From Cyanobium sp. FGCU52 (GTDB lineage Bacteria > Cyanobacteriota > Cyanobacteriia > PCC-6307 > Cyanobiaceae), in contig JANWUS010000044.1 of assembly GCA_024958715.1 (NCBI GenBank), positions 5,009 through 69,008 of the forward strand: DNA of 64,000 nucleotides, in the 5' to 3' direction. Positions 1-12,266 of the stretch are shown piece by piece. Both the position numbers and the translations under genes were made by a program. The notes under the pieces were generated by a model. The model worked only from the letters and a program-made list of their open reading frames with translations, ran no database searches and was not told the origin of the DNA. Each line of letters opens with the position of its first letter. The stretch's first letter is position 1.

Positions 1-989
1 CTAGCCCGCCTCACGGGTGCATCTTTCAGAATGCTTTGCATAGAGTTCGCGGTCGAGAAAAGAATGATGTTCGCTACCTAGGCTACTGCCTAAAGCAGGC
101 GGCAGAAGCAGGGTGGTTTGACGTCTTATGCAACAGAGCCACGATTGCCCATTTCACAGTTGAAAAGTTGCGCGAACTTCGCATTCACCTGCCCTGTGCC
201 GAAACTCAGCGTCTCATCGCCAACTACCTCGACCGCGAAACCGCCTGCATCGACAAGCTGATCGCCGAAAAGGAGCGCATGCTGGCCTTGCTGGATGAAA
301 AGCGTTCCGCTCTCATCAGCCGTGTTGTCACCCGTGGGCTTGATCCCAATGCGCCGCTCAAGTCGTCCGGACTGGAGTGGTTGGGGGAGATTCCGGCGCA
401 TTGGACAATTGAGAGAGCCAAGAACCTGTTTGCAGTTCGAGATGAACGATCAGATGACGGATTGGAAGAACTTCTAACCGTGTCGCATATCACAGGGGTT
501 ACCTCGCGTTCCGAAAAGAACGTGTATATGTTTGAGGCGGACGACAAAGCTGGTTACAAACGCTGCCTGCCTGGTGACCTCGCAGTCAATACACTGTGGG
601 CGTGGATGGGCGCAATGGGAATCAGCCCCTTGGAAGGCATCGTCAGCCCTGACTATCACGTCTACACATCCAAGGGAGAGTTGCTACCGGAGTACATTGA
701 TCTCCTGTGCCGCTCAAAGCCCTTCGTGGCTGAAGTGATCCGTTGGTCAAAGGGAGTCTGGTCTTCTCGTTTGCGCTTGTATCCCGAGAACTTTTTCGAA
801 ATGCGTCTCCCTGTCCCCCCAAAGAGCGAGCAACTCGAGATTTGCAGAGCAGTAGAAGCGGACCAACGAAAGGCAAATAATCTGAGAGATAGCTTGCATT
901 TGTCAATAACATTAGCTAAAGAACGCCGCTCCGCTTTGATTGCCGCCGCTGTCACCGGCCAAATTCCGCTAGAGGATATGGACGAATGA
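1..989 (+). CDS. hsdS: Type I restriction-modification specificity subunit S, 5'-truncated by the window edge
   Basis: The frame of the 36..989 ORF is open back to position 3. It has HsdS conserved-region motifs (LP..ETQRLIANYLDRET..ID.LI; KSSGLEWLGEIPAHW; ERRSALIAAAVTGQI) separating variable TRDs. Confidence 0.93.
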   Translation, partial: SPPHGCIFQNALHRVRGREKNDVRYLGYCLKQAAEAGWFDVLCNRATIAHFTVEKLRELRIHLPCAETQRLIANYLDRETACIDKLIAEKERMLALLDEKRSALISRVVTRGLDPNAPLKSSGLEWLGEIPAHWTIERAKNLFAVRDERSDDGLEELLTVSHITGVTSRSEKNVYMFEADDKAGYKRCLPGDLAVNTLWAWMGAMGISPLEGIVSPDYHVYTSKGELLPEYIDLLCRSKPFVAEVIRWSKGVWSSRLRLYPENFFEMRLPVPPKSEQLEICRAVEADQRKANNLRDSLHLSITLAKERRSALIAAAVTGQIPLEDMDE

Positions 990-2299
990 AACTTGAAAGC
1001 ATATCGCTTGCACACTGCGGCGGTTTCGAGCAACTTGATATTGCCTTTGAGCAGGATGTGACTCTAGTCGCAGGCGTCAACGGCGTAGGTAAATCCACAG
1101 TGCTGCACGCCTTGGCGGTCGTTCTGTCACGGGCACTTCCAGAATTCACGCCATCACGCTCCGCTCCTCTGTATTTCACAGATGACGACATTCACGCTGA
1201 AAAGGGCTCGTTGGAAGTGAGTGTCTGCCTTCAGCTCGATGGCCAGACCACTAACGCAGGGGTGCAGCGTCTACGTTCAGCCGAGGAGAAGGGAGACCGC
1301 TTCATCCTGTTGCGGCAGGCCGAATCCGCCACTGGCGCCGCTGATTTCGCGGACGTGCTCAACGCTCGCACGCTGACCGGCGATCTTGAGGCCGGCATGA
1401 AGGAAATGCGCACGGTGCTGGCCTCCCTGAAGAGCGCCGCCCACCCACCGCTTGCGGTGTATTTCACCCCCAAGCGACAGCTGCCCGGCCAGCCCCGCAG
1501 CCTGCCGGAGGCCAGGCCATTCGAGGTATCCATGGCCTTCAGCCGGGCGCTTCACGATCGTGAAATTGAGCTGCGGGAGTTCATGTATTGGTTCCGCACC
1601 CAGGAGAAGCTGGGCACGGCAGAGGAGCCGCGGCGCTTGAAGGTGTTGGACGCACTCCGGTCCGTTGTCACCGACCTGGTGCCTGAATTCAGCAATCTGC
1701 GGATCCAGGAGCACCCTCGCCTCGGGTTCGTGGTGGACAAGCGCGGCCAGCCCTTCTATCTGCACCAACTATCCGACGGCGAGCGTGGCCTGTTGGCCCT
1801 GGTTTTTGATCTCACCCGACGCTTGGCGATCGCGAATCCAGATAGTGACGATCCCATATCCGCAGGTGTGGCGCTGGTCTTGATCGATGAGATCGAGCTG
1901 CATCTGCATCCCAAATGGCAACGCAATGTCTTGCAGCGCTTGTGCGACATCTTCAAGGCTTGCCAATTCGTGGTGACCACCCATTCACCCCTTGTGCTGG
2001 GTGAGGTGCCGGCGCGTTGTGTGCGCTTCCTCGAATTCGTCGATGGCAAAGTGAAGGTGTTCACTCCCTCAGAGGCGTATGGCATGGATGCCAACCGCAT
2101 TCTGCAGGAGTTCATGGGGGCGCCGGTACGTAATCGGCAGGTGGAGGAAGAACTTGCGAATCTCTTCGAGTTGATTGACAATGAGGAGTTCGACAATGCT
2201 CGAATTGCGATGGCAGCGCTTGAAGAAAAGCTTGGCACAGCTGAGCCCGAATTAACCCGCGCCAGTTCGCTGATTCGCTTTCTGGAGGGCACTGACTGA
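986..2299 (+). CDS. ABC-type AAA ATPase, Septu PtuA / retron-effector-like
   Basis: Walker A GVNGVGKS, signature QLSDGERG, Walker B LVLIDEIELHLHPKWQR, H-loop TTHSP; immediately upstream of an HNH gene; ATGA overlap with hsdS. Confidence 0.8.
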   Translation: MKLESISLAHCGGFEQLDIAFEQDVTLVAGVNGVGKSTVLHALAVVLSRALPEFTPSRSAPLYFTDDDIHAEKGSLEVSVCLQLDGQTTNAGVQRLRSAEEKGDRFILLRQAESATGAADFADVLNARTLTGDLEAGMKEMRTVLASLKSAAHPPLAVYFTPKRQLPGQPRSLPEARPFEVSMAFSRALHDREIELREFMYWFRTQEKLGTAEEPRRLKVLDALRSVVTDLVPEFSNLRIQEHPRLGFVVDKRGQPFYLHQLSDGERGLLALVFDLTRRLAIANPDSDDPISAGVALVLIDEIELHLHPKWQRNVLQRLCDIFKACQFVVTTHSPLVLGEVPARCVRFLEFVDGKVKVFTPSEAYGMDANRILQEFMGAPVRNRQVEEELANLFELIDNEEFDNARIAMAALEEKLGTAEPELTRASSLIRFLEGTD

Positions 2300-2929
2300 A
2301 TGCGCACCATCCAGAAGGGCCCAGAGCCCCCCACACTCACGCAGCACCGGAAACAGCCACATGCCGTCTACGACAACTATCCAGATAAAGAGGCCTTAAG
2401 GGTCGCGCTTATTGCTGAACAGCGCGGTCTGTGCTGCTATTGCCAATCCCGCATCAGGCCATCGCACGAGCACATGAAGATTGAGCACTGGCAATGCCAG
2501 GACGCTCATCCGGATCGCCAGCTCGATTTCAGCAACTTGCATGGTGCTTGCCTTGGCGGCGAGGGGAGGCCGTACCGTGAGCAACATTGCGATACTCGCA
2601 AAGGCAAAGATGTGCTGTGCTTCAGCGTCTGCGATTCAACTCGCCCCATCGAGCACAAGATTCATTTCAAGGGCGATGGCAGAATCACTTCAGATGATCC
2701 TGCCATCGAGCAGGATATCAATGGGGTGCTGAATCTCAATCTGACAAGGTTGGTGAACAATCGCAAGGCTGTGCTGACTGCATTCAAGGAGCGGTTGGCG
2801 AGGGGGCCGCGACTCGATCCAGCCCGAGAACTTCAGAAATGGGACGGCAGCCAATCAGGTGAGCTGGAGCCATTCGCCCAAGTTGTCGTGTATTACTTGC
2901 AAAAACGGCAAGCCAGGCCCATTCGATGA
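2300..2929 (+). CDS. HNH endonuclease, TIGR02646 / PtuB-like
   Basis: [10 protein letters not shown]...IEHW...NLHGAC...HCDTRKG Zn/HNH motifs; the start codon abuts the ATPase stop (TGA 2297-2299, ATG 2300). Confidence 0.82.
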
Positions 2930-3528
2930 AGCCCATGGCTATCGAGGTTGCCACCAGTTCCCCCACCTGCTGGATCATCGCAGGCCCCAATGGCGCGGGC
3001 AAAACCACCTTTGCCCTGGAGTTTCTGCCGCGCACCGGCTGCATGCACTTCATCAATGCCGACCTGATCGCCGCCGGCCTGGCTCCCTTGGCACCTGAGC
3101 GAGAGTTGCTGGCGGCCAGCCGCCTGGTTCTGTGGGAACTCGAAACACGCATCGCGGCCCGCGACAGCTTTGCCTTCGAGACCACCCTCGCCGGCCGCAC
3201 CTATCTGCGCCTGGTTGAGCGCTTACGGCAACAGAGCTGGCGCGTGGAATTGATCTACCTGGCGCTGCCCAGCCCTGAAATGTCCGCCCTGCGGGTAGCC
3301 GAGCGCGTGGCTCACGGCGGCCACAACATCCCACAGTCCGACATCCAGCGCCGCTTTCCCCGCAGCCTGCGCCACCTGCTCCATGAGTTCAGCCATAGGG
3401 TGGATCGCTGCACCTGCTTCATGAACCACGCAGCCCGCCCAGTGCTGGTGTTCGAGCAAAATGGGCTGACGCGCACGATCCACGATCCCAGCTGGTATCA
3501 GCTGCTGCTCCACCAGGCCCAGGCATGA
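2926..3528 (+). CDS. Zeta-toxin-like P-loop NTPase (COG4185-like)
   Basis: [44 protein letters not shown] motifs typical of this family; ATGA overlaps on both sides. Confidence 0.75.
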
Positions 3529-3725
3529 CCACAACCACCAACACCCCCCAGGCCAGCCCCTCAGAACACGGCCGCCAGCTGCTGGACGCCCTCGGCCAGT
3601 CCGTCGCCAAGGCTCTGGACACCAAACGGCGCCTGGGCCACTACGCCGTGACCTGGCAGAACGGCAAACCCCTGCTGGTCGGCGATGACGCACCACCAAC
3701 CCAAGCGGCACCACCGGGCCGATGA
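3525..3725 (+). CDS. 66-aa protein coupled to the zeta-like gene (possible antitoxin or partner)
   Basis: ATGA overlaps with both neighbours; the [22 protein letters not shown] segment resembles small proteins I recall downstream of this NTPase family. Confidence 0.6.
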
Positions 3726-6700
3726 GCGACAAGCGCGTCTCCGAAACCGCCTTTGAGACGGTGATCGAAGCCCAGCTGCTCGCCGCTGGTTACACGGCGG
3801 TGGATGGCCAGGCCTTTGATCGCGAGCGCGCCATCTTCCCCGAGGAGGCGCTGGCCTTCATTCGCACCACCCAACCGCAGATCTGGAGCAAGCTGGAGGC
3901 CCTGCACGGCGAGCAGACCGGCCCTCGCGTGCTGGAGGCGCTGTGCAAGTGGCTCGACAGCTACGGAGCGCTGGCCACCTTGCGCCATGGCTTCAAGTGC
4001 TTCGGCAAAACCCTGCGGATCGCCTTCTTCCGGCCCGCCCATGGGCTCAATCCTGAGCTGGAGGCCCGTTATCAGGCCAATCGCGTTGGGCTCACACGCC
4101 AGCTGCACTTCAGCCCCAGATCCGAGCAATCGCTTGATGTGGTGCTGTCGGTGAATGGAATCCCAGTGGTCACGCTGGAACTCAAGAATCCACTGACAGG
4201 CCAGACCGTCAAGCACGCGATCAATCAATACCGGCAGGATCGTGATCCTCGTGAGCCGATCTTTGTCTTCACCAAGCGCAGCCTGGTGCATTTCGCGGTG
4301 GATACAGAAGAAGCCCATATGACCACCCGCCTGGCCGGATCCTCCACCCACTTCCTACCCTTCAACAAAGGTTTCAAGGGCAATGCTGGCAATCCACCAG
4401 ATCCCGAAGGCAGAAACTACAAGACAGCCTATCTCTGGGAAGAGGTGCTCCAGCGTGACAGTCTGCTCGATCTGCTGGCCCGCTTCCTGCATCTCTCCGT
4501 GGAGGAGAAGACGTCCGACCAAGGCAAGAAGATCCGCAAGGAAAGCCTGATCTTTCCCCGCTATCACCAGTTGGAAGCGGTCAGGTCGCTGCTTGCAGCG
4601 GTCGTCCGTGAAGGCGTTGGCCACAACTATCTGATTGAAAATTCTGCAGGCAGCGGCAAAAGCAATACCATCGCCTGGCTGTCACATCGTCTCTCCAGTC
4701 TTCATGACGATCAGGATCAGCGCCTCTTCGACAGCGTCGTCGTGATCACCGATCGCCTTGTTCTCGATCGCCAGCTGCAAGACACGATCTATCAATTCGA
4801 CCACCGTCAGGGCGTGGTACAGAAGATTGATGAAGATTCACGCCAGCTCGCCGAAGCCCTGCAGGCTGGTGTGCCGATCATCATCACAACCCTGCAGAAG
4901 TTTCCCTTTGTGAGCGAGCAGCTGTACAAGCTCAATGAGGAGCGAGGCCAAGCAGGTCAGGATCATCTGCCCACCCGCAAGTATGCGGTGATCATTGATG
5001 AGGCTCACAGCTCACAGTCGGGCGAAACAGCCACCGAACTCAAAGGCGTGCTTGGGGGTGCAGATCTTCGTAACAAAGCCAAGCAGATGGCGGACGAGGA
5101 AGAGGGTGTGGCACTGGAAGGCGTCTTTCGAGCCATGGCCAAGCGAGGCCAGCAAGCCAACATCAGCTTCTTCGCCTTTACAGCCACGCCCAAATACAAA
5201 ACATTTGTCCTGTTTGGACGCAATGGCGATGCTTTCCACCGCTACACCATGCGGCAGGCCATCGACGAGGGCTTCATCGAAGACGTGCTCAAGAACTATG
5301 TCACCTATAAAACCTATTACAAGCTGCTCAAGAAAGCGGAACAAGACCCGCATGTGGAGCGCAAGAAGGCGGCCAAGGCCCTCGCCCGCTTCATGAAGCT
5401 GCACCCCCACAACATCGCCCAAAAGACCGAAGTGATGGTGGAGCACTTCTATCTGTCCACACGCCACAAGATCGGTGGCCATGCCAAAGCAATTGTTGTG
5501 ACGGGCTCGCGCCTGGAGGCGGTGCGCTACAAGCAAGGGTTTGATCAGTACATCCAAGCCAAGGGATATCCGATCAGGAGCCTCGTCGCCTTTTCCGGCA
5601 AAGTCGAAGACGACAAGCTACCTAACACGAGCTATACAGAAGTCGACATGAACGGTGGCATCAAGGAAAAGGATCTGCCCGAGGCCTTCGCAACCCCCGA
5701 GTATCAGGTGCTTTTGGTGGCTGAAAAGTACCAGACCGGCTTCGATCAACCCTTGCTGCACACCATGTATGTCGACAAGCGGCTCTCTGGTATCCAGGCC
5801 GTCCAGACCCTGTCGCGCCTGAACCGCACCCATCCGCTCAAGGAAGACACCTTTGTCTTGGATTTTGTCAACAATCCAGAAGAGATCCAGGAAGCCTTCA
5901 AGCAATATTATGACGGCGCTGTGATGGGAGAAGAGGTTGATCCCGATAGGCTCTATGAACTAAAGGTTGATCTCGACGCATCTGGCATTTACCTGCAAAG
6001 CGAAGTCGATGAATTCTGTAGAATGTTCTTTGCTCCAAAACGCCGTCAGAGCCCAAGCGATCACAAAGCGATCAACGCCATTCTTGATCAAGCACGAGCA
6101 CGTTTTGTGCAATTCCAAGCCAAGGATGACGAAGAGGCTGAGCTATGGCGCGGCAAACTGCAAGCCTTCAGCAACCTATACAGCTTCCTCAGCCAGGTCA
6201 TCCCCTATCAGGACAGCGACTTAGAAAAGCTGTATACCTACCTTCGCCATCTGGCGCTGAAGCTTCCTAAACGAAGCCTCGGCAAGAGCTACCAGTTCGA
6301 CGACGAGATCGATCTCAACTATTACCGGCTGCAGAAAATCAGCGAAGGCTCAATCAGCCTCTCTGAAGGGCAAGCCACACCATTGGACGGCCCCCATGAG
6401 GTGGGAACTGGCTTATCCCGGCCAGAGCAGGTTCCGCTCTCTCGCTTGATTGATCTGATCAACGAACGTTTTGGCGGTGAACTCAACGACGCTGATCAGC
6501 TCTTCTTCGATCAGATTGTCGAGACAGCGAGCCAAAGCGAAGGCCTTGAGCAAGCTGCCAAAGTGAACTCTCTTGATAAGTTTCGACTTGTCTTTAACCA
6601 GACCTTGGACGCATTGTTTATTGAGCGCATGGAGCTCAATGAAGAACTCTTTGCCGACTACATGGGCAGACCCGAACTGCGGGATTTGATCAGCGACACC

Positions 6701-6742
6701 TTGGGGAAGCAGGTCTACAAGCGATTTCGTGAGCCAATGTGA
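3722..6742 (+). CDS. hsdR: Type I restriction endonuclease subunit R
   Basis: 1006 aa; nuclease motif DVVLSVNGIPVVTLELKN, helicase motifs SAGSGKS, IIDEAHSSQ, FTATP, TGFDQP and QTLSRLNR. Confidence 0.95.
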   Translation: MSDKRVSETAFETVIEAQLLAAGYTAVDGQAFDRERAIFPEEALAFIRTTQPQIWSKLEALHGEQTGPRVLEALCKWLDSYGALATLRHGFKCFGKTLRIAFFRPAHGLNPELEARYQANRVGLTRQLHFSPRSEQSLDVVLSVNGIPVVTLELKNPLTGQTVKHAINQYRQDRDPREPIFVFTKRSLVHFAVDTEEAHMTTRLAGSSTHFLPFNKGFKGNAGNPPDPEGRNYKTAYLWEEVLQRDSLLDLLARFLHLSVEEKTSDQGKKIRKESLIFPRYHQLEAVRSLLAAVVREGVGHNYLIENSAGSGKSNTIAWLSHRLSSLHDDQDQRLFDSVVVITDRLVLDRQLQDTIYQFDHRQGVVQKIDEDSRQLAEALQAGVPIIITTLQKFPFVSEQLYKLNEERGQAGQDHLPTRKYAVIIDEAHSSQSGETATELKGVLGGADLRNKAKQMADEEEGVALEGVFRAMAKRGQQANISFFAFTATPKYKTFVLFGRNGDAFHRYTMRQAIDEGFIEDVLKNYVTYKTYYKLLKKAEQDPHVERKKAAKALARFMKLHPHNIAQKTEVMVEHFYLSTRHKIGGHAKAIVVTGSRLEAVRYKQGFDQYIQAKGYPIRSLVAFSGKVEDDKLPNTSYTEVDMNGGIKEKDLPEAFATPEYQVLLVAEKYQTGFDQPLLHTMYVDKRLSGIQAVQTLSRLNRTHPLKEDTFVLDFVNNPEEIQEAFKQYYDGAVMGEEVDPDRLYELKVDLDASGIYLQSEVDEFCRMFFAPKRRQSPSDHKAINAILDQARARFVQFQAKDDEEAELWRGKLQAFSNLYSFLSQVIPYQDSDLEKLYTYLRHLALKLPKRSLGKSYQFDDEIDLNYYRLQKISEGSISLSEGQATPLDGPHEVGTGLSRPEQVPLSRLIDLINERFGGELNDADQLFFDQIVETASQSEGLEQAAKVNSLDKFRLVFNQTLDALFIERMELNEELFADYMGRPELRDLISDTLGKQVYKRFREPM

Positions 6743-6765
6743 CTGCGAGGTATCTGTTGGCGGAG

Positions 6766-6854
6766 GTCGAACAATCCGATGCAACTGACCCGCATCCAGT
6801 GCGTCCATTGATCACCACAAGATCTTTGCGGGCAGGTGATCGGAAGCGTTCGAA
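6766..6854 (+). mobile_element. attC site 1 (integron cassette recombination site), 89 bp
   Basis: GTCGAAC (6766-6772) ... GTTCGAA (6848-6854). Left arm tccgat[g]caactg[a]cccgca pairs with right arm tgcgggcaggtgatcgga, with two unpaired bases and one mismatch. It lies 23 nt after the hsdR stop. Confidence 0.8.
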
Positions 6855-6982
6855 GGAGGATTGAAGCTCTATCCACATGGGTCGTTCATACCGTAAAGAT
6901 TTATGCCTATTTTACGCTGATGCGCCGGCCGCTTGCCTTGGCAAGGAAATACTGGAAAAAATCCACTTCATGGAGGAGCATC

Positions 6983-7252
6983 ATGAGTCTTTGGTTCGTG
7001 ACAGTTCCCGGGAAACTTGATCGGTACTTTTATTGCGAGAGCCAGTCAGTCAACAATGCTTTTGAGTTAATTAAGAAAAGCTTAGGTTGGCCGTCATTGT
7101 CCTGTGATGCAACGGGCGAGGGGCCAACAGCAAGTGCAGTCAATATGTTCAAGCCCTCGGATGAGATTCTTATTATTTTGGCACGAGATGGCATATTTGA
7201 AATAAGAAACGCTGAGAGTATGCCACCATCGCAATCTCTTATGCCATTCTAA
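6983..7252 (+). CDS. Orphan 89-aa protein, first ORF of cassette 6849-8835
   Basis: GGAGGAG Shine-Dalgarno just before ATG 6983. The longer 6836 start lies inside attC1 and is unlikely. No recognisable domain. Confidence 0.55.
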   Translation: MSLWFVTVPGKLDRYFYCESQSVNNAFELIKKSLGWPSLSCDATGEGPTASAVNMFKPSDEILIILARDGIFEIRNAESMPPSQSLMPF

Positions 7253-7259
7253 ATAAAAT

Positions 7260-7282
7260 GTGGTTTCCGGTACTGGAACCAC
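7260..7282. other. Intergenic hairpin between the two ORFs of the cassette
   Basis: gtggtttcc-ggtact-ggaaccac imperfect inverted repeat; no U-tract on the + strand. Confidence 0.35.
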
Positions 7283-7321
7283 GCCGCTAACTCACTCAAT
7301 CAAAACCATCTGAGGTGTCTT

Positions 7322-8688
7322 ATGGAACTGACGGCCGTCCTTGCTTCTGAATACATCAATCTTTGGGATAACTGCACGATCAACCCACGCTATGAAAGTG
7401 ACGTAGTTTGGTCTATTCAGAAAATCAGCGAGAGTAGACAGCTCTACGAGAAAGTCTCCGCAAAGACAGGTGTGCCCTGGTATGTAATAGCCGTTATCCA
7501 CAGTCTTGAGTCAAGTATAGATTTTAGCACGCATCTTCATAATGGAGACCCATTGTCCTCACGAACTAAAAACGTGCCTCAAGGCAGGCCTTTACATGGC
7601 ACTCCTCCATTTACATGGGAAGATTCAGCTATTGATGCCTTAAACTATGATGGCGCTTGTGGAGTAAGAAACTGGGATTTACCCACTCTTTTTGGTTTCT
7701 TGAAGGGTTTAATGGTTGGGGATATAGGATAGGCTCTGGCAGGAAAACTACACCAGCGCAACGTAGTGCGTACTTATTTTCAGGAACGAATCATTATGAA
7801 AAGGGGAAATATGTCGCCGACGGGTCCTTTGACCCGGAAGCCATTAGTGCACAGGTTGGCTGTATGGCCTTGCTCAAAGCACTTGAGAAGAATGGCCAAA
7901 TATGCATATCTCCATCAGCTGGGGAGCAGCTTAATGAAAACATAGTGGGATCAGTTCAAGCCTGGCAGCACCTCCTGAACGGGTGTGGATATCTACCATC
8001 ACTGATTATAAATGGACATCTTGATGCTGCTACAGTCCAGTTAACTAAGAGTTTCCAGACGGATTTAGGATTAGACGTAACGGGAGGTGTTGATTTGTCG
8101 ACCTGGAAGGCTGGCCTGAGGCATAAGAAGCTTCCAGGATGGCAACAAATTGTCCCACCACTATCCTCTATCAAAAATCCACCACCACGTATAGCGCAAA
8201 AGAATCCGAGGAATTATGCTAGCGGTGGTAACACAACAAGAAGGCTTCATGACTTTTATTCACGAGAAAACAACTATGATTCTGTTTACGACAATGTCAT
8301 GAGTTGGTACGGCACAACTAGCAACGGGTGTACCGCTTTTGTTTCAACCGCGCTTCGACTAATTGACTATGATGTGCCGATTGAGACCAATGCCGAAGGA
8401 TTTAATATTTCTCTTTGGACGGCAGCTCTCTCAGGGTACCTGGAAGATAAAGGCTGGAAAAGATCGGACCTTGCTAATAACATGTTGCCAGGCGATATCG
8501 TTTTTACTGACGATGGTGGGTATGATGATGGCATACCTTGCCACGTATATGTATTCTCTAAATGGCATGACTCATCCAAAGAAGTCGCATGGGTTATAGA
8601 CAATCAGGCCTTCACTCATAGACGTAACATCTACGCTGGTGGTGGTGGCTTCAACTTCTCTCCCTTTGCATATTTTTTACGCGACTAG
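7322..8688 (+). pseudogene. Three-domain peptidoglycan hydrolase (COG5526-like lysozyme + PG-binding + NlpC/P60-like), split by a -1 frameshift at 7689-7693
   Basis: ORF 7322..7732 has TGVPW..IAVIH.LES..DF.THLHNGDPL..RT..VP.GRP..PPFTWEDSA.DAL. ORF 7657..8688 continues it with EGFNGWGY...YLFSGT..Y.KGKYV.DG.FD, then a PG-binding-like segment and a GCTAFVS...PGDIVF...HV papain-like domain. Adding one T to the T5 run gives the continuous reading LPTLFWFLEGFNG. Confidence 0.75.
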
Positions 8689-8749
8689 ACTTATCATGAT
8701 ATTGGCCATAGTGGCTGGCCTATAGATATGGGTTGTTTAGATGATCCCC

Positions 8750-8841
8750 TTCGAACAAGCCCCTCGAGTGGACAGGCCCCCACTAGCCCTCTGCTGCGCC
8801 ACCCAGAGCTCCCTGCCTGCCACTCAGGGGCAGCGTTGGAA
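8750..8841 (+). mobile_element. attC site 2, 92 bp
   Basis: TTCGAAC (8750-8756) is the exact reverse complement of GTTCGAA at 6848, which opens this cassette. Arms gcccct[c]gagtgg / ccactcaggggc; ends GTTGGAA (8835-8841). Confidence 0.82.
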
Positions 8842-9603: not shown

Positions 9604-9687
9604 TTCCAACATCAAGATGCAGAAGACAGGACCGTAGTCTGCTTCCTGTGCCGAGGTTTATGCCCGCTTCTGATCTTGGCGTTAGAT
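9604..9687 (+). mobile_element. attC site 3, 84 bp
   Basis: TTCCAAC (9604-9610) is the reverse complement of GTTGGAA at 8835. Arms caagat[g]cagaag / cttctgatcttg; ends GTTAGAT (9681-9687). Confidence 0.85.
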
Positions 9688-10398: not shown

Positions 10399-10486
10399 AT
10401 CTAACATCAAGATCCAGCGGCCTGGGCAAGGGGTTGCCTGAAATGCGTGCTGAGATTTCTGCCGCCGCTGATCTTGAGCGTTGGGC
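10399..10486 (+). mobile_element. attC site 4, 88 bp
   Basis: ATCTAAC (10399-10405) is the reverse complement of GTTAGAT at 9681. Arms tcaagat[c]cagcggc / gccgctgatcttga; ends GTTGGGC (10480-10486). Confidence 0.88.
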
Positions 10487-11001: not shown

Positions 11002-11096
11002 GCCCAACAACGCGCTCCAGCCGACGCTCAAGTCGCCGCTGCGCGCTCCATGAGTTCCCTCGCTACGCTCGGCGCGGCTGAGCGCGGGCGTTGGGC
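11002..11096 (+). mobile_element. attC site 5, 95 bp
   Basis: GCCCAAC (11002-11008) is the reverse complement of GTTGGGC at 10480. Arms cgcgct[c]cagcc / ggctgagcgcg; ends GTTGGGC (11090-11096). Canonical RYYYAAC/GTTRRRY. Confidence 0.9.
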
Positions 11097-11561: not shown

Positions 11562-11644
11562 TGATAAGTTAGAAGTAAATTTGCTGCCTTGATCCTTTTG
11601 CGGAGTCCATGCTACGTGGGTTAAGTCTGCCGAGGAGCGGTTTC

Positions 11645-11737
11645 TCCCAGCAAGCCCATCGAGTGCATTGGCCAGCACCATCCCCGCTGCTCAGCAGCCC
11701 CAAACTACTTGCCACCCAGTCAGGGAGAGCGTTAGGC
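11645..11737 (+). mobile_element. Decayed attC site 6, 93 bp
   Basis: tcccagcaagcccatcgagtgcattggcc aligns with the start of attC2 (ttcgaacaagcccctcgagtggacaggcc), but AAC has become AGC and the arms pair poorly. It ends GTTAGGC (11731-11737), directly before the tspO SD and start. Confidence 0.6.
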
Positions 11738-11753
11738 CGCAGGAGGGGCGTCG

Positions 11754-12266
11754 ATGACCGAGCGAAAAGGATTCCGTTGGTGGCATGCCGCGCTCATCCT
11801 CGCGGGTGCCAACGCCATCAGCGCCCTCCCTGCGGGCTTTGGCGGCGACTTCGTCTTCTACAACTCCTTCCGCCAGCCCGCCATCGCCCCGCCTGACTGG
11901 GCCTTCGCCCCGGTGTGGCTGTTCCTCAACGTCACCTCGCTCGTCGCCCTGTCTCGCATCGCCAACTTCCCCGAGCGATCATCTGCCACAACCTTGTTCC
12001 TGTGGTCCGAGGGTGTGGCGTGGGTGCTGTTCGCCGCCTTCACCACGGTGTACTTCCTCCTGCACAGTCCGGTCCTCGCGGCAGCGGACACGGTCGCCGG
12101 GCTCCTGGCCGGCCTGGTCAGCCTGGCGTGCGCTTTCCGGCTCGACCGCCTGTCGGCAGGGTTCATCCTGCTGCGTGTGCTGTGGCTTGTGCTGGCCACC
12201 TACGTGTCGCTGTTCGTGGCTTTGTCTAACGCGGATCCGTTCCTGGGGATCAGCGCCCTCTGGTGA
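11754..12266 (+). CDS. tspO: TspO/MBR family tryptophan-rich sensory protein
   Basis: FYNSFRQPAIAPPDWAFAPVW motif, five hydrophobic segments, AGGAGG SD. Confidence 0.85.
   Translation: MTERKGFRWWHAALILAGANAISALPAGFGGDFVFYNSFRQPAIAPPDWAFAPVWLFLNVTSLVALSRIANFPERSSATTLFLWSEGVAWVLFAAFTTVYFLLHSPVLAAADTVAGLLAGLVSLACAFRLDRLSAGFILLRVLWLVLATYVSLFVALSNADPFLGISALW

Follow-up and report, generated by a model that had tools for sequence, protein, structure and literature searches.

Integron cassettes are regarded as small elements that usually carry one gene and no promoter. Whether a cassette can also consist of an entire multi-gene defence operon is the question raised by a stretch of 64,000 nucleotides from Cyanobium sp. 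FGCU52 (G000:C44:5009-69008, C44 being contig JANWUS010000044.1; hereafter the window), which opens within a type I restriction-modification (RM) operon followed by an array of attC sites. A sequence-only reading of the window had proposed that six coupled genes spanning more than 6.8 kb form one giant integron cassette, probably with hsdM further upstream. The contig has 5,008 further bases to the left of the window, and this left part is cited here in L001 coordinates. Judging from its sequence, C44:2324-11856 (9,533 bp) is very probably one integron gene cassette, made of a leader, seven co-oriented and coupled genes and a single attC, and placed within a cassette array. The idea of a single giant cassette therefore stands, and its extent has to be enlarged: the unit opens 2,684 bases to the left of the first base of the window and includes hsdM. 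It is about five times the usually quoted maximum size of a cassette, and exceptional in both size and content.

Both ends of this unit are delimited by a canonical G/TT crossover. On the left, a gap of 225 nt separates hsdM from the end of an attC (attC0) whose R' box, GTTCGAC, is the exact reverse complement of GTCGAAC, the R'' box of the attC that follows hsdR (attC1). Both hsdM and a GTTCGAC core in front of it had been predicted from the window, and both are present in the left part of the contig, the core being the one that closes attC0 (Table 1). As the 5' core (TTCGAC) complements the R'' box of the cassette itself, a circularised copy would rebuild a perfect attC. Within the unit, no attC was found in L001:2334-11769 by a covariance model of the attC family of this genome run with the cmsearch filters off, the best score being 7.7 bits versus 65-78 bits for real sites; a generic structural scan of the giant cassette was likewise negative. 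Complementary cores at both ends and the absence of an internal attC define the unit as 9,533 bp with seven genes and one attC. The genes follow the order hsdM, hsdS, ptuA, ptuB, a kinase-like gene, a small open reading frame (ORF) and hsdR, and all seven frames are open, without internal stops. Overlaps of 4 nt (ATGA) join hsdS to ptuA, ptuB to the kinase-like gene, the latter to the small ORF and the small ORF to hsdR; hsdM and hsdS also overlap by 4 nt, to the left of the window, and ptuA and ptuB abut directly (TGAATG). The chain of overlapping or abutting codons, the attC 23 nt past the hsdR stop (the stop ends at 6742 and attC1 opens at 6766) and the lack of an attC between the genes, all noticed in the sequence-only reading, are borne out by the ORF junctions and by these scans.

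The attC sites themselves form a coherent family. Seventeen sites of this genome align with a consensus of 20 pairs, and compensatory changes occur at 14 of these; the family has invariant R-box triplets, an unpaired central spacer and, on the R''/L'' arm, two extrahelical positions with a spacing of 6 bp. attC1 is the top-scoring member of this family and carries the two extrahelical bases at the same spacing and on the same arm, and its bottom strand, folded as DNA, reaches -20.5 kcal/mol (z = -3.75). An 'AAC-A(A/T)...GC-GTT' asymmetry and the extra bases of the left arm are conserved across the family. Judged by canonical attC sites such as attC-aadA, these two features presumably mark the + strand as the top strand, in agreement with the orientation of the ORFs. 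The covariance model built from the 17-site alignment (R1) also recovers sites that were not used to train it, in this genome (30-49 bits), in Cyanobium and Synechococcus integrons (25-77 bits) and in integrons of Acidobacteriota, Eisenbacteria, Betaproteobacteria and others (27-63 bits), and thus behaves as a general attC detector. A structural scan of the whole 3.48-Mb assembly for AAC...GTT with two 6-bp stems and, after each of them, an extra left-arm base returned only 24 matches, on few contigs and near contig ends, six of them consecutive on C44. At every junction of the C44 array, six in all, the R' box of one site is the reverse complement of the R'' box of the next; from attC0 through attC1, attC2, attC3 and attC3b to attC4, the core pairs are GTTCGAC/GTCGAAC, GTTCGAA/TTCGAAC, GTTGGAA/TTCCAAC, GTTAGAT/ATCTAAC and GTTGGGC/GCCCAAC.

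Table 1. Positions of the giant cassette, its genes, the attC sites of the C44 array and the integrase genes of the host. Plain numbers are window positions; L001 numbers refer to the contig, and C39 and C66 are other contigs of the same genome.
Feature	Position	Strand	Details
Giant cassette, whole	L001:2324-11856 (window -2684 to 6848)	+	9,533 bp, from TT of the attC0 core G/TTCGAC to G of the attC1 core G/TTCGAA
Giant cassette, part within the window	1..6848	+	
attC0	L001:2243-2329		upstream of hsdM; 67.6 bits; R' GTTCGAC at L001:2323-2329
Conserved leader of the cassette	L001:2324-2554		231 nt
hsdM	L001:2555-4711	+	718 aa; N6_Mtase + HsdM_N
hsdS	3..989 (start at L001:4708)	+	type I specificity subunit; C-terminal 328 of 429 aa in the window; PDLC03072, 3.3e-79
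ptuA	986..2299	+	Septu ABC/AAA_21-type ATPase, 437 aa; PtuA PDLC00271, 8.8e-123
ptuB	2300..2929	+	Septu HNH nuclease, 209 aa; PtuB PDLC00322, 1.1e-74
P-loop kinase-like gene (Zeta_toxin/AAA_33)	2926..3528	+	200 aa
Small ORF	3525..3725	+	66 aa; no family match
hsdR	3722..6742	+	1006 aa; type I restriction subunit; HSDR_N, SWI2_SNF2/ResIII, T1R_D3
attC1	6766..6854	+	78.4 bits; R'' GTCGAAC 6766-6772, R' GTTCGAA 6848-6854; crossover between G6848 and T6849
attC2	8750..8841	+	72.6 bits; R'' TTCGAAC (complementary to attC1 R'), R' GTTGGAA
attC3	9604..9687	+	71 bits; R'' TTCCAAC, R' GTTAGAT
attC3b	10399..10486	+	65 bits; R'' ATCTAAC, R' GTTGGGC
attC4	11002..11096	+	66.6 bits; R'' GCCCAAC, R' GTTGGGC
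Terminal attC, weak, probably decayed	11641..11741	+	distal array end, ends GTTAGGC; 13.9 bits, E 0.18
intI	C39:9903-10991	+	above the NCBIfam curated cut-off (TIGR02249)
intI	C66:228-1262	-	above the NCBIfam curated cut-off (TIGR02249)

The cargo is a composite defence locus. The type I RM system is complete, as HsdM, HsdS and HsdR are present and intact and retain their catalytic motifs (Pfam, PADLOC and motif check): NPPF and the AdoMet motif in HsdM; D..ELK (PD-(D/E)xK-like), a GSGKS Walker A and DEAH in HsdR. Between hsdS and hsdR, what had been described from the letters alone as an ATPase-HNH pair and a zeta-like gene, forming two toxin-like modules, is indeed found, with its identity corrected to Septu (PtuAB) in the first case and, in the second, to a P-loop kinase-like gene that has a small, conserved partner. 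PtuA carries Walker A (GVNGVGKS) and Walker B (LVLIDE) motifs and PtuB retains a His/Cys-rich HNH nuclease region; the two genes are adjacent and give strong PADLOC matches, as is characteristic of Septu. The PtuA/PtuB pair of this system was reportedly described by Doron and colleagues in 2018. Both proteins fall below the NCBIfam equivalog cut-offs for retron Ec78 (235 versus 500 bits and 102 versus 150 bits). The kinase-like protein has a Walker A motif (GPNGAGKT) and matches Zeta_toxin at 32.1 bits (cut-off 22.3) as well as AAA_33; neither it nor its partner gave an informative match in PDB or NCBIfam searches, and PADLOC returned none for the kinase-like protein. The kinase-like gene precedes the small ORF, the reverse of the epsilon-zeta order. 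Among the copies checked, the small ORF directly follows the kinase-like gene in 13 out of 13, with 79-94% identity in metagenome copies and 53-62% in Thiocapsa and Accumulibacter. Across relatives of the operon, the pair may be present or absent between ptuB and hsdR.

The host is a high-G+C picocyanobacterium of the Cyanobium/Synechococcus type: its genome (about 72% G+C) contains 11 matches to phycobilisome proteins in addition to PsbA/D-type reaction-centre genes. The first 12 kb of the window have a G+C content of 45-61%, and high G+C resumes after about position 12,000. Two full-length integrase genes are encoded elsewhere in the genome (Table 1). They score 457 and 446 bits on TIGR02249 (cut-off 265), and their closest relatives are from Cyanobium, Synechococcus and Vulcanococcus (67-83% identity). 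attC sites lie on the 3' side of intI, on the same strand, as in the 'inverted integrase' layout of Cury et al. (PMC4889954). Each full-length intI is preceded, in the same orientation, by an ORF of 575 aa without family match (C39:6763-10991 and C66:228-3020; loci L006 and L007). Two short fragments of intI occur as well, one at C13:6528-6689 and another, with attC sites after it, at C80:30042-30149.

The strongest evidence for the limits of the cassette comes from other integrons. A metagenome scan with the kinase-like protein returned contigs that carry the operon at 84-96% identity, among them L135 and L136, which represent one population in two samples, and L132. Homology to C44 (blastn) covers 2323-11858 in L135/L136 and 2320-11864 in L132, and thus ends at the two crossover points; in both alignments (A2 and A3) the sequences agree from GTT inward and are unrelated outward, on either side. 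The recurrence of the operon between G/TT junctions of other arrays, which had been suggested as a check, is therefore observed in L135/L136 and in L132. The 5' core complements the R'' box of the same cassette in L135/L136 too, and with one mismatch in L132 (GTTCGAA). In L136, an intact intI at 2979-4043 (457 bits), whose product is 76% and 74% identical to the two IntI proteins of the host, is followed by an attI of about 168 nt and then, from 4212, by the cassette (9,680 bp), which is the first cassette of a complete integron. Further downstream, the L135 array has two ordinary cassettes, each about 0.8 kb long, for which the rule of complementary cores holds as well. In L132, the cassette (9,553 bp) is preceded by an attI, homologous but divergent, and further to the left by an intI with an internal deletion. 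The deletion removed about 760 nt and left only the N- and C-terminal ends of intI (L132:1038-1253); this integron is probably immobile, its intI being deleted. A context of G(G/A)A(T/A/C)CC..C(C/T)AA(A/T)A..., then G/TT, is common to the attI crossovers of all four integrases. A fourth, more divergent copy (84%) occurs in L215, from a Cyanobacteria metagenome-assembled genome (MAG), where the end of hsdR is followed by a homologue of attC1 (55 bits) with its R' box decayed to GCTCGCA, and then by high-G+C DNA. An exact scan with a 19-mer of the left arm of attC1 over 596 Gb gave six matches, of which the one in L215 is real and the five others have neither attC nor operon; by our own estimate, about four chance matches are expected in 596 Gb. 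The cassette is thus internal in C44 (after attC0), the first at attI in L135/L136 and L132, and represented by its 3' end only in L215.

These copies also bear on whether the cassette has moved. Pairwise, the cassettes share about 91% identity, whereas intI DNA is about 75% identical between the integrons and the flanking chromosomal core genes 79-80%, which points to transfer between lineages after their divergence. The chromosomal neighbours differ as well: a SelD-like gene and a 392-aa ORF precede intI in L136, a gene matching contig C9 of the host is found in L132, and the 575-aa ORF precedes both intI genes of the host. Taken together with the higher identity of the cassettes, this makes at least two integration events likely. 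One can imagine instead that a cassette, genuine by structure, was captured once at attI in a common ancestor and has since been immobile, the neighbours having changed around a stationary 9.5-kb block as newer cassettes entered upstream at attI and those downstream were excised or exchanged. Newer insertions at attI push a stationary first cassette inward, and would turn a first-position cassette such as that of L136 or L132 into an internal one such as that of C44, with the same G/TT boundary, so that different neighbours are by themselves no proof of repeated movement. The deleted intI of L132 and the decayed R' box of L215 would fit fixation of the block, and in published assays with cassettes of up to about 3 kb the frequency of excision fell with length for some attC combinations (PMC5371416). 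Nevertheless, the different chromosomal neighbours of the three integrons and the excess of cassette identity over that of intI and of the flanking core genes make a single capture improbable.

The cargo can be followed outside integrons. The operon hsdM-hsdS-ptuA-ptuB-hsdR is present in 27 mostly proteobacterial genomes (including Thauera, Nitrosomonas, Accumulibacter, Thiocapsa, Paracidovorax, Lysobacteraceae, Bryobacter and Geobacteraceae), with 68-79% nucleotide identity and 63-84% amino-acid identity for PtuA. In all 27, homology extends from the hsdM start codon to a point shortly before the stop codon of hsdR, and no attC was detected at the operon ends by either R1 or the generic scan. 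The locus is absent from 24 genomes of the same genus, in which only distant type I paralogues were found. A copy without attC, 83-84% identical, is carried by L138, a 74.8-kb contig from a related, Cyanobium-like picocyanobacterium. The sequences on either side of it match G000:C6:71661-75304 and C6:75354-80738 at 77-81% identity, so that this copy is a plain insertion into a site left unoccupied in the genome studied here. In L138 (L138:3810-14882 versus G000:C6:75304-75354), an extra 107-aa ORF is coupled upstream of hsdM, and an ORF of 123 aa with a HELLH motif, metallopeptidase-like, lies downstream of the operon.

In maximum-likelihood trees of hsdR, the cyanobacterial/freshwater copies form a clade with 100/100 support in which L138 is basal, and in the first tree C44, L132 and L135/136 form a subclade, again with 100/100. 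Clean monophyly of the attC-bearing copies was considered: supported in this first tree, it is weakened by the addition of L215, and we do not claim it. Downstream of hsdR in the attC-less loci L137, L138, L022 and L019 no attC-like precursor was found, and the divergence from the cassette copies begins at about the stop codon. A search for an older cassette whose cargo had been replaced, using the leader and attC1 against this genome and all fetched loci, matched only cassette copies. The simplest history would be a single gain of attC within picocyanobacteria by an ordinary attC-less operon, then spread and some decay. We tentatively suggest, with slightly less than even credence, that this lineage may record the genesis of a cassette on the scale of an operon: an attC-less RM/Septu operon gained an attC of the host type 23 nt past its last stop as well as a defined 5' end, and then spread between integrons via attI. 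In a further relative, a high-G+C fragment of a different hsdM abuts the hsdM of the operon (L134:2000-2370) and hsdR is cut short, which suggests that the incoming operon recombined with a resident type I locus.

The same comparisons bear on the proposal that the locus is no cassette at all, being an RM/Septu island caught between two independent attC clusters, or flanked by an array that landed beside it, with a coincidental match of cores. The operon normally travels without attC, and its size and own leader are atypical of cassettes; moreover, the GTCGAAC-type core is one of about a dozen core variants in the genome, so that a match would arise by chance roughly once in 20. A chance match in a single genome does not, however, explain why L135/L136 and L132, whose flanks are unrelated, have identical end points. 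What adjoins the operon on its left in L136 is attI/intI and not a second array, and attC1 sits 23 nt past the stop and travels with the operon. The host's relatives lack the locus, and the attC-less copy of L138 stands at a different chromosomal site that is empty here, contrary to the scenario, raised in the sequence-only reading, of a resident RM locus shared with relatives. We consider such an island very unlikely. It is just as hard to believe that low-G+C cassette DNA of another organism was joined at repeated attC sites by an assembly or binning error, as might be suspected from the 45-61% G+C of the cassette region against about 72% in the host and from an assembly that is fragmented at arrays, with attC sites near many contig ends, since attC0 and attC1 are unique sequences without repeats long enough to mislead an assembler, C44 runs on through five more cassettes and 80 kb of host DNA, and independent assemblies (L136, L132, L138 and L215) place the operon beside cyanobacterial-type intI or chromosomal genes 75-81% identical to those of this genome.

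Several points weigh against a mobile giant cassette with the history outlined above. Both intI genes of the host are located on contigs other than C44, whose array runs off the 5' end of the contig, and no exact overlap of contig ends joining C44 to an intI contig was found. All other copies of the cassette come from metagenome contigs or MAGs, and part of the difference in context could stem from cassettes inserted or excised around a stationary block. The hsdR trees are rooted at the midpoint only; L215, which has an attC, falls together with L134, a locus without a cassette-like 5' end, and the placement of L137, without attC after hsdR, is uncertain (83/80) once L215 is added. The kinase-like protein is only a weak match to Zeta_toxin and its small partner matches nothing. 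Finally, we infer excision, integration, promoter activity, methylation, restriction and phage defence from the sequence. Concerning the missing left part of the array, the contig C68, read on the minus strand, suggests itself as a possible left neighbour of C44: its R' (GTTGGGC) faces an R'' GCCCAAC, and an ORF is open to the contig end. A core of the GTTGGGC type recurs at other sites, so that this join is tentative.

With these reservations, a working model of the giant cassette can be proposed. In the integron pathway, IntI cuts the folded bottom strand of attC between G and TT; recombination between attC and attI integrates a cassette, and recombination between two attC sites excises it. 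The giant cassette would be excised and inserted in the same way, by attC x attC and attC x attI recombination of its folded bottom strand, via IntI. Transcription could start from a promoter of its own within the 231-nt leader, which is 85% conserved among the cassette copies and includes an invariant CCCAAGGCTATACTGG block with a TATACT hexamer, the sole promoter-like match in the region. As a first line of defence, an HsdM2S methylase would mark self DNA and the HsdR-containing complex would cut unmodified DNA. Septu, nested between hsdS and hsdR, may act as a second line, as with other systems embedded in type I operons, and the kinase-like/small-ORF pair could add another effector or, as an addiction module, stabilise the block. 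The target-recognition domains of hsdS differ between the cassette copies, as expected of an RM system in active use. These differences take the form of whole-segment replacements of both domains (L001:4711-5214 and 5412-5929); L135/L136 also have a divergent allele in place of the 3' portion of ptuA and the whole of ptuB (L001:7033-7970), with a PtuB of 237 aa versus 209 aa.

In its architecture, the giant cassette resembles those of sedentary chromosomal integrons (Vibrio, Xanthomonas): it has one 3' attC with R'', L'', L' and R' boxes and extrahelical bases, G/TT at both ends and a 5' core that complements its own R'', and it is co-oriented with the array. It departs from known cassettes by its seven genes, its 9.5 kb, its own conserved leader, a cyanobacterial host with inverted intI orientation and the possibility of identifying attC-less ancestors. 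A typical cassette holds a single ORF, with a median coding sequence of 362-575 bp (PMC5371416), and Cury et al. cite the 'largest known cassettes' as about 2 kb ('~2 kb') and use a clustering threshold of 4 kb (PMC4889954). Loot et al. worked with synthetic cassettes of up to about 3 kb, suggested that the small size reflects constraints at cassette genesis, and called cassette formation 'largely unknown' (PMC5371416). Like the cassette-borne anti-phage systems recently described (Darracq et al., doi 10.1101/2024.07.02.601686; Kieffer et al., doi 10.1101/2024.07.02.601719), the present one has a defence cargo and occupies attI and internal array positions. Among 783 cassette defence systems across RefSeq, Darracq et al. 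reported in a 2024 preprint that systems 'never exceed 2 components' and that long loci are 'entirely absent', which they ascribe to the need for compaction (doi 10.1101/2024.07.02.601686). A full-text literature search yielded no description of type I RM systems carried by cassettes and none of integrons in Cyanobium, although reports outside the searched literature are possible.

The cargo, too, has partial precedents. Other defence systems are embedded in type I operons, such as PrrC and TgvAB (PMC12409362), and the present locus is similar in having a second defence module, co-transcribed, between hsd genes, with the order hsdM-hsdS-ptuA-ptuB-hsdR in at least 27 diverse genomes. It differs in that the module is Septu with an optional kinase-like pair, and in that the composite became an integron cassette in this lineage. 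Abutting genes for an ATPase and an HNH nuclease are a feature shared with Septu and with the PtuAB effectors of retron Ec78; unlike in retron Ec78, there is no reverse transcriptase or msr-msd, and the pair is nested in a type I RM operon. The kinase-like gene is reminiscent of zeta/epsilon toxin-antitoxin (TA) systems and of the TA cassettes that stabilise arrays, with its P-loop kinase fold, a Zeta_toxin match above cut-off and a coupled small partner in an integron array. In contrast to epsilon-zeta, the kinase-like gene comes first and the small gene second, and this partner has no detectable family.

A seven-gene cassette of 9.5 kb, with a three-subunit type I RM system and Septu, whose ends are confirmed in several integrons, indicates that the size limit of cassettes is not absolute. 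It also adds picocyanobacteria, which are major primary producers in fresh water and face heavy pressure from cyanophages, to the hosts of integron-borne defence. At default settings, IntegronFinder would split L136 into a lone integrase and a separate attC cluster. The cargo has identifiable relatives without attC, including one in a related host, and this allows a base-by-base comparison of the cassette and non-cassette states. If genesis at the scale of an operon is true, there would be no practical size limit to cassette formation or to IntI recombination, the integrons of these cyanobacteria would traffic whole multi-gene islands, as an interval in L051 also hints, and giant cassettes would systematically escape standard surveys, in which attC sites are clustered within 4 kb.

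The giant cassette has another cassette on either side. The one after attC1 (window 6855-8841, about 2 kb) has two overlapping ORFs, 7322-7732 and 7657-8688, the latter with a peptidoglycan-binding domain, and these may be one frameshifted gene. The one before it (L001:1-2243) measures at least 2.2 kb, runs off the contig end and contains two ORFs (>286 aa and 414 aa) without Pfam, PADLOC or NCBIfam match. The long interval of L051 belongs to a related integron in a Cyanobium sp. MAG (JBIIJV010000052.1), where 6.0 kb separate two attC sites (L051:2264-8302). Every core in that integron is one and the same TTCGAA palindrome, which makes the rule of complementary cores uninformative for this array. 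The interval holds four co-oriented genes, encoding an S8 subtilase, an APH-like kinase, a HopA1-like protein and a LanC-like cyclase, which resemble a split lanthipeptide synthetase cluster. It also includes a second copy of the antidote gene and attC that belong to the TA cassette in front of it.

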